64,000 nt of DNA from a bacterium (GTDB taxonomy: Bacteria > Patescibacteriota > Minisyncoccia > Moranbacterales > UBA2206): assembly GCA_021788105.1 (NCBI GenBank), contig JAJYKZ010000002.1:3320-67319 (forward strand), in the 5' to 3' direction. The notes under the pieces were generated by a model. That model did not search any database. It saw only the letters and a program-made list of their open reading frames with translations, and was not told the DNA's origin. Each line of letters opens with the position of its first letter. The stretch's first letter is position 1. Below, piece after piece: positions 43,772 through 62,029 of the stretch. Position numbers and translations under genes: made by a program.

Positions 43772-45106
43772 ATGAAAAGGAAAATGTTGTTCGTAGTGAT
43801 CGCCATTCTGATGGCGATTGGCGTGCCTGCGATTTCGTTCGCGGGTGGAGGCGGGCATGAGGAGGGAGTTCACGTCGACACAGATGTGAATTCATCCTCG
43901 AGCTCAAGTTCAAGCTCGAGTTCAAGCTCAAACAGCACAAATACCGCCTATGGCGGTGAAGGCGGACAGGGTGGAAACGGAGGAGAGGGTGGCCATGGTG
44001 GTAAAGGCGGAAACGCTACTGCCACAGGTGGAAATGCCAGCAATGGCAATCAGACCACCACTGTCGGCGGGCAAAACGTGGAGATAAAAACTCCGCGCGA
44101 GTTTCTGCAGACTCCAATTTCCGGGGAATTTGTAAATCCGGGTATCTCAATCGAAAGTACTAAATGGCGTATTTACTGCCCGGCAGTGTATCGGACACTT
44201 TCAGCGTCCGAGGTGCAGGAAATGGAACGGAAATTCCAGCTTGGGGATATTCTCCCCTGGAACTGGAAAAGCCGCGTCCACATAGTAAATGTGAACAATC
44301 GGCTTCCGGGAAATCCGAGCTCGATTTCCTGTATGAGTTACTGGCCGAAAGCCGAAGCTCTTGCGGGAGACAAAGTTATCGCCGCTGTCACGGTTGATGG
44401 CGACAGCGAGTGGAACGAGGAATCGTTTCTGGGTCTCGCGGCGGATGCATGTCTGCAGGTGGGATCTAGCCGTGTAGCCATATTGGAAAGAACCAGATTT
44501 GCTGGAGTCACTTCAGGTATGGCTTTAGGCTTCGGGGGCGGCGCTTCGCAAGTGCGCGGAAGTACCGGAATGGTTTTTAGCACAACGCCGCAGATTGGAA
44601 CGACAAAAATAACTACCGAAGACCAGGTGCAGTTTCAGGCGCTCTGCATGAACAATGGCCCGCTCGAATTACCGCGGGTGCAGGTATCAACTCCATCACC
44701 GGTCATCAAACCGGCACCGAAGCCAGCGCCCAGTTGCAATCCGGATGAGATTCAGACAAGAATAAATATCGATCTCGAGGCTTGTAGTTATTGTCCTCAT
44801 CCGTGCTTAAACAATGAAGAGCATAGGATATGGGCAGGCCTTGGCTACATCAACAAGTACGTTTGCACACACGACATGGTCTATCTCCTGAACGCCATCG
44901 AACAGTTTCAAATAGCCGAAAGGGATTATCTGCGCGGCTATGAACCGAACGGAGTAAAAACCCGGAAATTAGTAGGAGCGCAGGAGCTGATGCACCAGGC
45001 ATACCAAGCCTGGACTACAGCGATTTACATCCTGAATGGCAAAGAGGCCACGGACAGCTTTGCCAGGATGCATGGGGTAACAAAATATCACACCGAATTC
45101 AAATAA
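43772..45106 (+). CDS. Secreted hypothetical protein with poly-Ser and Gly-rich low-complexity region (GC-richer island gene 1)
   Basis: Signal peptide MKRKMLFVVIAILMAIGVPAISFA, a 13-Ser run, GGEGGQGGNGGEGGHGGKGG, and a Cys-containing C-terminal domain. Strong RBS (aaggaggtc). Confidence 0.6.
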   Translation: MKRKMLFVVIAILMAIGVPAISFAGGGGHEEGVHVDTDVNSSSSSSSSSSSSSNSTNTAYGGEGGQGGNGGEGGHGGKGGNATATGGNASNGNQTTTVGGQNVEIKTPREFLQTPISGEFVNPGISIESTKWRIYCPAVYRTLSASEVQEMERKFQLGDILPWNWKSRVHIVNVNNRLPGNPSSISCMSYWPKAEALAGDKVIAAVTVDGDSEWNEESFLGLAADACLQVGSSRVAILERTRFAGVTSGMALGFGGGASQVRGSTGMVFSTTPQIGTTKITTEDQVQFQALCMNNGPLELPRVQVSTPSPVIKPAPKPAPSCNPDEIQTRINIDLEACSYCPHPCLNNEEHRIWAGLGYINKYVCTHDMVYLLNAIEQFQIAERDYLRGYEPNGVKTRKLVGAQELMHQAYQAWTTAIYILNGKEATDSFARMHGVTKYHTEFK

Positions 45107-45124
45107 AGAAAGGCAGGAAATGAA

Positions 45125-46018
45125 ATGAAAAGGATTTTGGCTTTGTTGTCTGTATTCTTTTTTGTAATCTGTGCTGTTCCTGTTGCCCACGCGTTTGAGT
45201 ACGCGGGACAGGAGCAGGTTGTACCGGCTCAAACGTCGATTGCGGTCGACCAAACCGCCAACGAGTTGAAAAAGCTTCGCGGCGAGCTCGGAGGAACAAA
45301 GAGGGTTGTCTCGGCCCTCAAAAAAGAAGAGGCGAAGAGAACGGCTTCCGAGGAAAACTTGGCGAAGCAGACCAAGGAACTCGGAGAAACAGCCGTATCC
45401 TCTTTGCAGCAAAACGCCGCGGCGAATGCGGCGATGACGAATTCAGTTGCCAGCCTGAAAACCAACCTGAACAAGTTTGGCAGCAAGGTTGATGAGGTGA
45501 ATTCCTCTGTCTATGGCGATTACATAGTATTAGGTTTTATAATTATCGTGGCGCTGGTGACCATCCTTTTTGTGCTCGTATCGCTTCAGAGAAATCTGAG
45601 GCGTGAAATAAGGGAAAGTGCGACGGCCGTCGAACAGGCTGTCGAACAAGTCGTAGTGCAAGCCAGGGACCACATCGTAAACGAGGTTCCGAACCGCACG
45701 GCGACCGCAATCCGCACCCTCGATTCTTCGCCCTTCGAGTTTGAAGCGGCGGGGCATCAGGTTACGTACAAGTCGCCGGCGGAAGGAATAGCGGAGGGGT
45801 ATTATTTAACCCTCCATGTTCCCAAGGACATGGCGGGAGACGCAGCCATCTATCACCGCGACCACGAAACAAATCGCGGGGTGGCGCGGAGAAACATTCG
45901 CAAAACAATGCAACAATATTTCGAGGGCAAGTTTGATGCCCCCGAGTACGAGTTGCAGAAAAAGCTGATTGAGCATTTGAAGAGTACGGGAGAAATCTCG
46001 TATCGCAAGATCAGCTAG
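45125..46018 (+). CDS. Hypothetical bitopic membrane protein: signal peptide, extracellular coiled-coil, TM, cytoplasmic domain (GC-richer island gene 2)
   Basis: Signal peptide ending VAHA, an Ala/Lys/Glu-rich helical region, then a TM helix (YIVLGFIIIVALVTILFVLV). Confidence 0.55.
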   Translation: MKRILALLSVFFFVICAVPVAHAFEYAGQEQVVPAQTSIAVDQTANELKKLRGELGGTKRVVSALKKEEAKRTASEENLAKQTKELGETAVSSLQQNAAANAAMTNSVASLKTNLNKFGSKVDEVNSSVYGDYIVLGFIIIVALVTILFVLVSLQRNLRREIRESATAVEQAVEQVVVQARDHIVNEVPNRTATAIRTLDSSPFEFEAAGHQVTYKSPAEGIAEGYYLTLHVPKDMAGDAAIYHRDHETNRGVARRNIRKTMQQYFEGKFDAPEYELQKKLIEHLKSTGEISYRKIS

Positions 46019-46025
46019 GCTGTAC

Positions 46026-46057
46026 GGGAGCTTGGACGAAGTTATGTCCAAGCTCCC
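46026..46057 (+). terminator. Perfect 12-bp stem hairpin (gggagcttggac-gaagttat-gtccaagctccc) 8 nt after stop; no T-run
   Basis: Seen directly. Could be a terminator or an RNA-stability / processing hairpin. Confidence 0.35.
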
Positions 46058-46085
46058 GCCCAAACCACCAAGTTTCAATATCAAG

Positions 46086-53154: not shown

Positions 53155-53186
53155 CTTACTACCGTATTCTAGTATACGGTAGTAAG
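53155..53186. repeat. Palindromic repeat copy 1: cttactaccgta-ttctagta-tacggtagtaag (12-bp arms), 27 nt upstream of ATG 53214
   Basis: Perfect inverted repeat seen directly. Two further degenerate copies lie downstream. Confidence 0.75.
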
Positions 53187-54861: not shown

Positions 54862-55992
54862 ATGAAAATTGCCATCCAAGCGGCGGATCTTGATGCTTCG
54901 CGCATCGACGGCACGCGGGTCTATATCTTGAATCTTTTGAAACATTTCGGCAAACTGGATCCGGCCAGCGAGTTTTTGATTTACCATAAAAAAAATTTCA
55001 ATCCGGAACTCATGCCGCCGGATTTTTCCAATTACAAAATCAAACAGAAGTCTTTTCCATTCGCCTGGACGCAGACGCGCTTCGCATTTGAGATTTGGAA
55101 AGAGCGGCCAAACGCGCTTTGGATGCCGATGCATGCTTTGCCGGCGCTCCGCCGAAAAAATTTAAAGACCGTCGTGACGATCCATGATCTGGCGTTTAAA
55201 TATTTTCCCGATCATTTTCCCAAAGAAGATTTGCGCAAATTAAATTTGTTTACGGATTTTGCGGTGAAAAATGCGACGAAGCTCATCGCTATCTCCGAAG
55301 CGACTAAAAGGGATATATTGAAATTTTATCCGGAAGCGGAAGAAGAAAAAATAAGAGTGATTCATCACGGTTTCGATCCGGAAGTTTTTTCCCGGTCGCG
55401 CGAACTCGAGAAAGAAAATGAAATCAAAAAGCGTTTGGAAATTACCAAACCGTACATTTTATATATCGGCGCAATCCAGCCGCGCAAAAATTTAGAAACC
55501 TTGATCAAAGCTTTTGAAAAACTTAAAAGCCAAGCACAAAAGGAGCTAAGCTCCTTGAAAGATCTGCAATTGGTTTTGGTCGGAGAAAAAGCCTGGTTAA
55601 GCGAGACGACAGTCAAAAAAGCTCAAAACAGTCTATTTTCAATGGATATTAAGATGCCCGGAAAGCTCAAATTTGACGATTTGGGGCATCTTACCAGGGG
55701 AGCTGACATCTTTGCTTTCACGGCGCTTTACGAGGGTTTTGGGATTCCAATTTTGGAAGCGTTCGCGGCCGGTGTGCCAGTCGTCTGCGCTAAAAATTCC
55801 AGTTTGCCGGAAGTGGCCGGGGAGGCGGCGTTATTTTTTGAAAAAGGGGCGGAAGAATTGGCCGGGCAGATCAAAAAAGTTTTGGAAGATGAAAATTTGC
55901 GCCAGGATTTGATTGCCAAAGGCAAGGACCAGATCAAAAAATTCTCTTGGGAAAAATGCGCCCGGGAAACTTTGAAATATATTAAAGATTGA
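54862..55992 (+). CDS. Glycosyltransferase family 4
   Basis: EGFGIPILEAFAAGVPVVCAKNSSLPEVAG. Confidence 0.8.
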   Translation: MKIAIQAADLDASRIDGTRVYILNLLKHFGKLDPASEFLIYHKKNFNPELMPPDFSNYKIKQKSFPFAWTQTRFAFEIWKERPNALWMPMHALPALRRKNLKTVVTIHDLAFKYFPDHFPKEDLRKLNLFTDFAVKNATKLIAISEATKRDILKFYPEAEEEKIRVIHHGFDPEVFSRSRELEKENEIKKRLEITKPYILYIGAIQPRKNLETLIKAFEKLKSQAQKELSSLKDLQLVLVGEKAWLSETTVKKAQNSLFSMDIKMPGKLKFDDLGHLTRGADIFAFTALYEGFGIPILEAFAAGVPVVCAKNSSLPEVAGEAALFFEKGAEELAGQIKKVLEDENLRQDLIAKGKDQIKKFSWEKCARETLKYIKD

Positions 55993-60796: not shown

Positions 60797-62029
60797 ATGA
60801 AACTATTTTTGATAAAATTAGGCAAAGCTTTTACGACTATCAAACGCGACGGGATTATTGTCGGCGGAAAGAGAATTTTTAATTATCTGTTTTTGTTTAT
60901 AAAAACAATTCTTGCCGCCAAGCCGGGCGACATCTTGATTATTACCGGCGGCGTCGGCGACAGCGCGCATTACCGCACCCACAACCAGGCGGAAGAATTC
61001 AATTTGCACGGACTGAAAACTTCCGTGATGCTGCAAGACAATCCTTTGTTGCCGCGCTACGCGGACAAATACAAAATTTTCATTTTTCACCGCACGATCG
61101 TCACGCCGACGATCGCCAAGCTGATTGCAAATATCAAAAAACAGAACAAGGAAATTATTTTTGAAACGGACGATCTGGTTTTTGACGCCAAGCACATCCA
61201 AAGCACCGACCTCTACAAGAACAAAATGACCTATTTCGAAAAGAAGCAGTATGAAAAAGGAGTGGGAGAAGAGATTTTGAAAGATCCGTACGTCAAAGTT
61301 TGTTCCACGACGACGGCATATCTGGCGAAGATTTTAGAAGGCTACGGAAAAAAAGTTTTTATCAACAAAAACAAAATTGACAATCACGAGCTGGAAATCG
61401 CGGAAAATATTTTAAAAACTGACGAAAAAAAATTTCCTCAGGAGCTAAGCTCCTGGAATTCCAGGAGCTTAGCTCCTGAGGAAAAAAATATTTATCTGGG
61501 ATATTTTTCCGGAACGGCCAGCCACAATCGGGATTTCGCGACGATCACGGACGCGCTGGTGGAAATTATGAAAAAACATCCGCAGGTGAAATTGCTGTTA
61601 GCCGGACCCTTGGATACCGATAACATATTGAACAAATTTAAAGACAGAATTATCCGTCTGCCGTTTGTTTCGCGCGATAAATATTTTGGGAATGCCTATA
61701 AGGCTGATATTGTCTTGGCACCATTGGAACTTGGAGTGCCGTATTGTGAAGCAAAATCTGAGTTGAAATTTTTTGAAGCGGGCATTTTGAAAATTCCGAC
61801 CGTGGCGGTTGCCAACCAAACTTTCAAAGAAGCGATTGAGGATGGAGTGGACGGATTTTTGGCCAGCACGACGAACGATTGGATTTTCAAATTGGAAAAA
61901 TTAATCGCGGACGAAAAATTGCGCCAAGAGATGGGCGGGAGAGCCCGCGCGAAAGTAATGGCGGAATATACCAATCGCAACAGTCATAATGAAGAATATT
62001 ATAATTATTTAAAATCAAAACTAGTATGA
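60797..62029 (+). CDS. Glycosyltransferase with GT4-like C-terminal half and unknown N-terminal domain; contains in-frame palindromic insert
   Basis: The C-terminal KFFEAGILKIPTVAVAN ... DGVDGFLA resembles a GT-B C-domain. A 52-bp perfect palindrome encodes KFPQELSSWNSRSLAPEEK. Confidence 0.55.
   Translation: MKLFLIKLGKAFTTIKRDGIIVGGKRIFNYLFLFIKTILAAKPGDILIITGGVGDSAHYRTHNQAEEFNLHGLKTSVMLQDNPLLPRYADKYKIFIFHRTIVTPTIAKLIANIKKQNKEIIFETDDLVFDAKHIQSTDLYKNKMTYFEKKQYEKGVGEEILKDPYVKVCSTTTAYLAKILEGYGKKVFINKNKIDNHELEIAENILKTDEKKFPQELSSWNSRSLAPEEKNIYLGYFSGTASHNRDFATITDALVEIMKKHPQVKLLLAGPLDTDNILNKFKDRIIRLPFVSRDKYFGNAYKADIVLAPLELGVPYCEAKSELKFFEAGILKIPTVAVANQTFKEAIEDGVDGFLASTTNDWIFKLEKLIADEKLRQEMGGRARAKVMAEYTNRNSHNEEYYNYLKSKLV
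61433..61484. repeat. 52-bp perfect palindrome centred on GAATTC inside a CDS; contains the 13-mer GGAGCTAAGCTCC and its complement
   Basis: tttcctcaggagctaagctcctggaattccaggagcttagctcctgaggaaa, seen directly. The same 13-mer recurs at 55542..55554. Confidence 0.8.

Follow-up and report, generated by a model that had tools for sequence, protein, structure and literature searches.

A perfect 52-bp palindrome within a glycosyltransferase gene of Patescibacteria as a probable REPIN-like doublet of a dispersed hairpin family

The window analysed here is a 64,000-nt stretch of contig JAJYKZ010000002.1 (assembly GCA_021788105.1, positions 3,320 to 67,319, forward strand) from a member of the Moranbacterales within the Patescibacteria, or Candidate Phyla Radiation (CPR). 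At positions 61433-61484 it carries the sequence TTTCCTCAGGAGCTAAGCTCCTGGAATTCCAGGAGCTTAGCTCCTGAGGAAA, a palindrome with two 26-nt arms that are 100% complementary, a spacer of 0 nt and the centre GAATTC. The palindrome lies in frame within an open reading frame (ORF, 60797-62029) for a glycosyltransferase (GT) and is read as residues 213-229, FPQELSSWNSRSLAPEE. Its 13-mer GGAGCTAAGCTCC is also found at 55542-55554 within a GT gene of type GT4 (ORF 54862-55992), where it is translated as ELSS. An earlier note on this DNA had described the palindrome as perfect, in frame, encoding about 17 residues and improbable by chance, with the 13-mer recurring as ELSS in the GT4 gene, and it had proposed three candidates for its nature, namely a miniature palindromic insertion element that a loop can accommodate, a site of exchange between the two GT genes by recombination or replication slippage, and a phase-variation or regulatory hairpin. 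The descriptive part of these claims was confirmed. The arms are fully complementary and encode 17 residues, by our own arithmetic a perfect 52-bp palindrome is expected by chance about 64000 x 4^-26 times (~1e-11) per 64 kb, and the recurrence in the GT4 gene is an exact match, with none of 100 shuffled controls containing any match to the 13-mer. A point not made in the earlier note is that each arm forms a hairpin of its own, CAGGAGCT-A-AGCTCCTG, the whole element consisting of two inverted copies of a stem-loop of 13-17 nt. Such doublets and singlets recall repetitive extragenic palindromic (REP) sequences and their doublets (REPINs), and the features of the locus are listed here in these terms.

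60797-62029, plus strand: host gene of the palindrome, GT-B glycosyltransferase (Pfam Glycos_transf_1), 410 aa
61433-61484, no strand: the whole element, a perfect palindrome of 52 bp (REPIN-like doublet) that keeps the frame of the GT gene (residues 213-229)
61433-61440, no strand: outer left arm TTTCCTCA, locus-specific extension of the palindrome (8 nt)
61441-61453, no strand: hairpin unit 1, GGAGCT-A-AGCTCC, conserved REP-like core, read as ELSS
61454-61463, no strand: central 10-nt spacer TGGAATTCCA, palindromic; it varies among genomes and mostly is still palindromic
61464-61476, no strand: hairpin unit 2, GGAGCT-T-AGCTCC, inverse of unit 1, read as SLAP
61477-61484, no strand: outer right arm TGAGGAAA, complement of the left arm (8 nt)
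54862-55992, plus strand: GT4 glycosyltransferase, 376 aa, host of the singlet
55540-55556, no strand: singlet AAGGAGCT-A-AGCTCCTT, in frame in the GT4 gene (KELSSL)

Among the inverted repeats of the 64 kb this palindrome stands alone, the runner-up measuring 23 nt at 83%. Folded as single-stranded DNA it reaches -29.8 kcal/mol (z = -11.3 against 200 shuffles), and runs of A8 and A7 border it. The window holds three 13-mers in total, a count that does not change when up to two mismatches are allowed, and the concern that the 13-mer might simply be frequent does not apply within these 64 kb. That the palindrome is an assembly or amplification artefact, i.e. a chimeric fold-back, is scarcely conceivable. 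A related 142-bp perfect palindrome around an ELSS doublet at a contig end (L023, 7794-7935) does look artefactual and is probably an assembly fold-back. The window copy, however, is located in the interior of a 69-kb contig within an intact gene whose frame it keeps, the identical palindrome is present in the NCBI record and in ENA contig ERZ27233565 k141_948134 (L132), and related copies described below stem from many independent studies.

By the source names of its homologs, Moranbacteria and Parcubacteria, the GT comes from a CPR bacterium. Orthologs of the GT are mostly about 394 aa long and contain an 11-aa loop (consensus NIPKEKDxFVR) at a position where the loop of the window GT comprises 26 aa, as seen in alignments of 30 and of 120 sequences. 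The ortholog alignment suggested in the earlier note thus identifies the segment as an insertion. The loop follows the last helix of the N-terminal domain and precedes the first strand of the C-terminal Rossmann domain. In an AlphaFold2 model of the window GT (predicted local distance difference test, pLDDT, 86.3; predicted template-modelling score, pTM, 0.84) the lone segment with a pLDDT below 50 covers residues 215-228, between helix 196-207 and strand 232-237. According to this model the inserted peptide is predicted to be the only disordered segment of the GT, placed in a surface loop.

A simple neighbour-joining tree of the best 120 homologs, calculated with the loop masked, placed the window GT and its 89%-identical sister P0002 among the insert-free sequences P0003, P0004 and P0006-P0010. 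The same element was found in P0014 (66% identical), which belongs to a distant clade and adjoins an insert-free sister, and a decayed element was present in P0079 in a third clade, again with an empty sister alongside. At the P0014 locus (AAGGAGCTAAGCTCCTTGAGTTCAAGGAGCTTAGCTCCT) the DNA shows the same pair of 13-mers with a centre that is altered on both arms (TGG/CCA to TTG/CAA), and at the P0002 locus both 13-mers are retained and the centre is rearranged. Judging from this tree, the element would have been gained at least three times separately at one and the same GT loop, or else lost many times. The earlier note had also considered that distant orthologs might carry the peptide without palindromic DNA; in P0014 and P0002 the peptide comes with palindromic DNA. 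As a side observation, L002 and L132 both derive from ENA sample ERZ27233565, in which the window lineage and the sister lineage (P0002) were co-assembled.

In six or more additional clades the same GT loop is occupied by a second structured palindromic element, unrelated to the first, with the termini TGTCATTCTGAGCG...GGATGACA. It was found at L007 (2001-3236), L008 (10001-11224), L009 (3001-4257) and L010 (2417-3664), its DNA follows the scheme TGTCATTCTGAGCG..GAAGAATC..GGATCC.TCG..CTC[AG]GGATGACA with T-G wobble in the terminal pairing, and the encoded peptides are SERKRVEES..IRSL or CHSERSEES..GSF. An Rfam search of these second-element loci returned nothing relevant. Probably this is another REP-like family. 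Since an unrelated element has come to lie in the same loop, the GT loop is a place where insertions survive.

The GT4 gene carries a singlet, which adds 6 aa relative to three empty orthologs. Another GT4 ortholog, L026, contains a full doublet (KELSSQAWELSSF) at the exact site of the window singlet, and the GT4 paralog L121 has a perfect doublet in a different loop. The GT4 13-mer is therefore a singlet of the same hairpin family as the window doublet, and this membership in a repeat family explains how the two GT genes can share a 13-mer without any exchange between them. The 13-mer is the only sequence that they have in common, and together with the full doublet in L026 and the three empty orthologs this contradicts the candidate of recombination or slippage between the two genes. 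Another loop that gathers insertions was observed in GT4 proteins, as the ortholog L008 (1179-2408) has a 37-aa insert (IITLPFSPWIRRDVPEGQRGGDDASQDLPLAPSLSRRG) in the loop where the paralog L121 (3645-4778) has its perfect ELSS doublet.

For an overview of the family, the contigs of GTDB representatives, a set in which each species has one genome, were searched for the pattern GGAGCTWAGCTCC-N(0-30)-GAGCTWAGCTCC. Both 13-mers had to be exact, and copy numbers are accordingly lower bounds in which diverged relatives are unseen. At least 116 stretches matched, against a chance expectation of about 0.1 by our own estimate. Among the matches listed, to which all of the following counts of copies refer, there were at least 123 copies in about 60 genomes, mostly Patescibacteria with several copies per genome, and by the taxon labels on the records the main carriers were Parcu-, Moran-, Falkow-, Nomura-, Nealson-, Gribaldo- and Saccharibacteria. 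A few of the carrying metagenome-assembled genomes (MAGs) were labelled Gammaproteobacteria or Bdellovibrionales (GC 32-46%) and one Thermoanaerobaculia; a handful of matches in other phyla were tandem peptide repeats with no palindrome. No match to the general pattern was found in 2.9 million viral contigs.

The architecture of the copies is constant and consists of a hairpin, a centre and the inverted hairpin, 112 of 120 copies being of the A..T or T..A type. A centre of 8 nt is the commonest (54 of 120), and the centre is perfectly palindromic in 49 of 120. Centres vary by genome (GAAGCTTC, TGTATACA, CAAGCTTG, CAGTACTG, TTCCGGAA and others) while one centre is common to several loci within a genome, with 4 to at least 12 doublets per genome. 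Sharing of this kind is what a family with a master copy particular to each genome shows. The Thermoanaerobaculia MAG (JAYVQF01) contains a GC-rich variant of the hairpin with the canonical GTAG tag of REP sequences and a 28-nt centre, TGTAGGGGC-GGAGCTAAGCTCC-GCCC..GGATCC..GGGC-GGAGCTTAGCTCC-GCCCCTACA, in at least 12 copies, some of them in long ORFs (loci L036, L047, L050, L055, L066, L078, L088, L107, L113, L117 and L122). Either this variant ties the CPR family to the classical GTAG REPs, or it reflects horizontal transfer.

The scan bears on a local origin of the palindrome as well, in which fold-back or snap-back replication or repair of the GT sequence, or an exchange between the two GT genes, would have created it and no family would exist. 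Fold-back synthesis can make perfect palindromes, the outer arms are specific to the locus, and the 13-mer is common to two GT genes of one cluster. The identical pair of 13-mers at no fewer than 116 other places in about 60 genomes, the recurrence in three separate clades of the GT and the full doublet at the GT4 site of an ortholog nevertheless make such an origin highly improbable. Several other classes of repeats were considered and rejected. A CRISPR array does not fit copies that are isolated or irregularly spaced, and a DNA uptake sequence would need about one motif per kb as compared to three 13-mers in 64 kb at up to two mismatches. A MITE (miniature inverted-repeat transposable element) was discarded on account of flanks that are an inverted rather than a direct duplication and of the lack of any visible parent DDE element, and an operator or parS-type site was likewise considered and dismissed.

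Open frames of at least 200 codons hold 58 of the 123 copies (47%), compared with 74% of random 34-nt windows placed in the same DNA, which indicates that genes are disfavoured as sites, yet far from excluded. According to Pfam the host genes encode leucyl-, isoleucyl/valyl-, arginyl- and methionyl-tRNA synthetases, PolA, the NAD-dependent ligase LigA, UvrC and Mfd, and furthermore IF-2, PurH, an ELP3-like radical-SAM enzyme, TGT, a Wzy ligase and a flippase. Depending on the frame, the encoded peptide is always ELSS, GAKL or SLAP. When LigA and IF-2 were compared with solved structures, the element peptide was located in a variable loop, E. coli being too distant for it to be called an insertion. 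The element also occurs in intergenic DNA and at unrelated positions of the housekeeping genes. These findings speak for the first candidate, the small palindromic insertion element that a loop tolerates, which agrees with the insertion relative to orthologs, the multi-copy family and the position in a loop predicted to be disordered.

They do not fit the third candidate, and a gene-specific functional hairpin acting on mRNA or DNA, be it by translation attenuation, mRNA stability or a GT phase-variation switch, is in our view very unlikely. The structure would be very stable, pairing is maintained as judged from the perfect palindrome here and compensatory arm changes elsewhere, and the A8 and A7 runs lie alongside. 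These properties have to be set against the presence of the same element in dozens of unrelated genes, many of them housekeeping genes, and in intergenic DNA, its absence from most orthologs of the GT, and the different palindromic element in the same loop of other orthologs. Moreover, the two records that were compared, ENA L132 and the window, showed no length variant.

The arms of the palindromes seem to be kept complementary by some process. In 63 of 120 copies the palindrome extends at least 3 nt past the 13-mers, as compared to about 2% of random controls, and these extensions are specific to the locus: copies of a single genome differ in them, as do copies that occupy one site of the transposase-like gene described below. 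L014 and L056, orthologous copies in a methyltransferase-like gene with 78-90% nucleotide identity, show two differences in the gene-derived arms, and both are compensated on the opposite arm at synonymous sites (GCA/GCG with TTT/TTC; CTC/CTT with GCG/GCA). Similarly, copies L112 and L102 in the arginyl-tRNA synthetase (ArgRS) gene differ by a swap from C:G to G:C. Compensated changes of this kind mean that something keeps the arms complementary. Selection on the hairpin or templated correction from arm to arm might do so, each of which would suffice to explain why the window copy is perfect. Comparing filled with empty sites of the GT and GT4 genes, at 61-78% identity and with element boundaries that cannot be fixed at this distance, we found that an A-rich left flank (..CAAAAG / ..AAAAAA) recurs and that the right flank resembles the inverted left one. 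In the ArgRS gene of L112 (305-360) a 12-nt direct duplication (CTCCTTTTTGAG twice) directly follows the element, an instance of slippage beside the hairpin.

A candidate enzyme was identified in the Moraniibacteriota genome ELA282 (JBAXFX01). The copies in this genome have a long left flank in common that turned out to be a 247-aa ORF with a hit to the Pfam domain Y1_Tnp (PF01797; 31.8 bits, cut-off 23). A local hidden Markov model of the 247-aa protein detected this gene family in 10 of the about 60 sampled genomes, where about one would be expected, by our own estimate, for a random single-copy gene in the sampled few kb around the elements. In all 10 gene-bearing genomes the element is located within a variable loop of the gene, between YHIYNRG and PNH[YF]HLIL, or 11-171 nt from the gene ends. 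At L110 two copies of ACCCAC-GGAGCTTAGCTCC-N-GGAGCTAAGCTCC-GTGGGT enclose the gene, at L127 and L128 single hairpins are found just upstream of the start codon, within the gene and just past the stop codon, and at L059 the gene holds a doublet and is flanked by singlets. The family is large, with more than 4300 homologs at E < 1e-10, mostly on short contigs. NCBI names the homologs 'transposase', and one at JGI is called 'REP element-mobilizing transposase RayT', after the REP-associated tyrosine transposases (RAYTs).

The residues H87, H89 and Y147, i.e. the H-x-H motif and the tyrosine of Y1/HUH enzymes, are invariant in 52 homologs. Searching the PDB by sequence yielded no match to the transposase-like protein. 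Its AlphaFold model (pLDDT 88.5) retrieved, as the top Foldseek match in the PDB, the E. coli RAYT bound to a REP hairpin (4ER8; E 1.6e-5, TM score 0.65), followed by TnpA of ISDra2 and of IS608. A weak and unlinked candidate in L125, obtained with a regular expression for HUH...YxxNP, was rejected; this expression had missed the gene family that was found through the repeated flanks in ELA282.

The peptide KELSSF occurs within the loop of 48 of the 96 top homologs for which the loop could be delimited, and in the two copies checked in DNA its codons (AAG GAG CTA AGC TCC TTT) are the hairpin. Such in-gene copies (KELSSF = AAGGAGCTAAGCTCCTT) are found between the first strand and the HUH motif at L061 (6690-7430), L127 (4001-4654) and L128 (4001-4663) and in P0123, and in other homologs the in-gene hairpin has decayed (KELGSF, KELNFF, KELRSF) or grown to a doublet. 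This could reflect autoregulation or an ancient self-insertion. In ELA282 itself the RAYT-like gene is present six times or more, as copies or as fragments (L052, L058, L061, L063 and L109). Several of the fragments end exactly at the palindrome with unrelated sequence beyond (junctions A|B, A|C, A|D and E|C), which suggests that the palindrome acts as a breakpoint of rearrangements in this genome. The RAYT-like copy in L126 (6704-7363) has a cysteine in place of the otherwise invariant catalytic tyrosine (LSCCINGN instead of LSAYVNxN) and may be inactive.

The most serious rival explanation accepts the family as real and lets it spread by other means, such as homologous recombination or gene conversion, another nuclease or hairpin-seeded template switching, the Y1 gene being a frequent target and not the agent. 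The KELSSF peptide inside the coding sequence of about half of the top homologs could mark the gene as a target, and inverted instead of direct duplications in the flanks as well as CPR copies that do not carry the GTAG cleavage tag point in the same direction. We nevertheless regard this explanation as unlikely. In several unrelated genomes hairpins lie on both sides of the gene at 11-50 nt, an arrangement that is known for RAYT genes (PMC3733652, PMC3337134), the gene was near the element roughly ten times as often as estimated for a random gene, and the protein fold matches a hairpin-binding HUH enzyme.

Taken together, we consider it quite likely that the palindrome is a REPIN-like doublet of a CPR hairpin family, probably mobilised by a RAYT-like enzyme and kept in frame in a permissive loop. 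Family membership, the insertion relative to orthologs, the preserved frame, the location in a loop, the linkage of hairpin and Y1/HUH gene in other genomes and the paired evolution of arms are the direct observations on which this builds. By analogy with known enzymes, the Y1 enzyme would bind the single-stranded hairpin and move singlets and doublets, and the intragenic copies would be those that selection spared, their frame being open and their position harmless. In the case of the window, a copy would have entered the linker that joins the two Rossmann domains of the GT, in an organism ancestral to both the window lineage and its 89%-identical sister, presumably in the form of single-stranded hairpin DNA handled by a RAYT-like enzyme. 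The insert would then have survived in a disordered surface loop, with the frame kept and no in-frame stop codon. Finally, the palindrome would have been kept perfect, and have grown a few bases into the flanking codons, by templated correction between the arms or by selection on the hairpin, a step that we infer because of the compensatory changes in other copies.

Several observations weigh against the REPIN-like interpretation. The sample of copies is ascertained by the search pattern itself, with both 13-mers exact. The window's 64 kb contain one doublet and one singlet, and neither further copies nor a homolog of the Y1 gene occur there or in the 2.5 kb beyond (L132). The exact variant of the window is absent from JGI metagenome contigs, and a recent transposition of this variant is therefore unsupported. 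Neither the GTAG nor the CGTC tag is present in the window copy or in the CPR copies, and the only NCBIfam match of the transposase-like protein, to the REP-associated tyrosine transposase model (NF047646), reaches 20-31 bits as compared to a cut-off of 80 bits. Moreover, the flanks are inverted and not direct repeats, no target-site signature can be defined in them, and no standard transposition model predicts such flanks.

A few further features of the window and of related loci are recorded here for completeness. At 46025-46058 there is an inverted repeat with perfect 13-nt arms and an 8-nt loop (CGGGAGCTTGGAC / GTCCAAGCTCCCG), at 53155-53186 a palindrome of 16+16 nt (94%), and at 55650-55693, within the GT4 gene and 100 nt past the singlet, an imperfect palindrome of 22+22 nt (77%). 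The GC content is 51% at 44-46 kb (44001-46000), 34-36% at 1-6 kb and 16-20 kb, and about 40-45% elsewhere. Genes with the domain PF05635 (23S_rRNA_IVP, a bAvd-like four-helix bundle) were found near the GT cluster in L003 (17048-17440 and 19608-19988) and L009 (4294-4656).

Genomes of CPR/Patescibacteria are about 1 Mb in size, and the family would extend the REPIN-RAYT type of association to a large and little-studied part of the bacterial tree. It would further tell where some of the short, so far unexplained insertions in CPR proteins come from, and would be a natural experiment on which protein loops tolerate insertions, one GT loop having been struck repeatedly by two unrelated elements. 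It also offers a case of palindromic arms that co-evolve via synonymous sites in coding DNA. The repeats may furthermore be one cause of broken contigs and of the low-complexity peptides 'ELSS/GAKL/SLAP' in CPR annotations. A more far-reaching and rather doubtful possibility is that the hairpin and the RAYT-like enzyme form an ancient, largely vertically inherited CPR system that time and again writes short translated palindromes into loops of essential genes (tRNA synthetases, PolA, LigA, IF-2), after which hairpin-templated copying converts neighbouring codons to the complement of the opposite flank. If this were true, the system would be a distinct source of protein insertions typical of CPR genomes, and the in-gene hairpin might have a function for the host, e.g. 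in autoregulation.

Among known systems the closest is that of REP sequences, REPINs and RAYTs, the 'REPtron' (definitions in PMC3337134, PMC3116915 and PMC3733652). Here as there, a short stem-loop unit (GGAGCT-W-AGCTCC, in many copies extended to 17 nt) is found singly and in inverted pairs, the pairs folding into one long hairpin. The units are dispersed with several copies per genome and genome-specific variants in related genomes, a mostly single Y1/HUH transposase-like gene is flanked by the repeats in other genomes, the best structural match is the E. coli RAYT with its REP hairpin, and arm pairing is kept by compensatory changes. There are differences in size, as the unit described here measures 13-17 nt with a spacer of mostly 0-10 nt, which results in doublets of 26-52 bp. 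Pseudomonas REPINs are much longer than these CPR doublets. For the REP unit a length of 20-40 bp is quoted (PMC3733652). The CPR copies are without GTAG or CGTC, the tags of the two described REP superfamilies (PMC3733652), GTAG being present only in the Thermoanaerobaculia variant. Nearly half of the CPR copies are intragenic and translated, unlike the extragenic REPs of the textbook, a hairpin copy is conserved within the transposase-like gene itself, and the transposase-like protein scores under the NCBI cut-off for RAYTs. With the tag missing, many copies intragenic and the protein below the RAYT threshold, we do not file the family as a canonical GTAG-REP.

Intragenic REPs are known as well, namely the GTAG repeats of Opitutus terrae and the CGTC repeats that correspond to RPE-4 and RPE-6 of Rickettsia conorii (Di Nocera et al. 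2013, PMC3733652). They resemble the elements described here in being in-frame singlets or dimers, often in replication and repair genes (uvrA and uvrB there; PolA, LigA, UvrC and Mfd here), and differ in their sequence family, in the phyla concerned and in the tags, which are missing here. The intragenic fraction appears to be higher here than in the repeats of that study, our sample being ascertained by the search pattern. The analogy extends to the Rickettsia palindromic elements in general, which share the in-frame insertion at sites compatible with the protein fold; it is an analogy only, since the elements described here are 26-55 bp long, dissimilar in sequence, hosted by CPR bacteria and linked to a candidate enzyme. 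The first of the Rickettsia elements, RPE-1, was reportedly presented by Ogata and colleagues in 2000 as palindromic selfish DNA that sits in frame in genes of a reduced Rickettsia genome and is translated with the fold undisturbed. RPE-1 has a length of about 100-150 bp and is restricted to Rickettsia. To our knowledge no transposase has been identified for it.

In insertion sequences of the IS200/IS605 group (TnpA of IS608 and ISDra2), the enzyme recognises subterminal hairpins in single-stranded DNA by an established mechanism. The enzyme fold and the catalytic motifs are the same as in the CPR protein, but here it is the hairpin that has multiplied and not the gene, and there is no multi-copy insertion sequence with defined ends, except for the several copies and fragments in ELA282. 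Quasipalindrome mutagenesis (Ripley; Lovett laboratory), in which intramolecular template switching during replication perfects imperfect palindromes, would explain why the outer arms are perfect and locus-specific and why changes come in pairs. It is the likely way in which the arms are maintained; being a mutational process and not an element, it is offered here for the upkeep of the arms only. Mobilisation of single-stranded hairpins is established for the TnpA proteins of IS200/IS605 and has been proposed for RAYTs (PMC3479197, PMC3116915, PMC3733652). MITEs and PARCEL repeats (PMC10969869, PMC2996958) are likewise small non-autonomous or palindromic repeats that can sit in coding sequence. 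In contrast to MITEs, the CPR elements are not bounded by the terminal inverted repeats of a DDE transposon and lack a direct duplication of the target site. PARCELs are longer, tandem amphipathic coding repeats. A literature search for the motif returned only chance matches to primers, and no paper was found that links RAYTs or REPINs with CPR bacteria; the coverage of these searches was incomplete, and an earlier description of the family is possible. The palindrome belongs to a known kind of selfish DNA and, as far as we found, to an undescribed family of it, which is REP/REPIN-RAYT-like, very short, about half intragenic, present as a copy within the transposase-like gene itself and CPR-wide.

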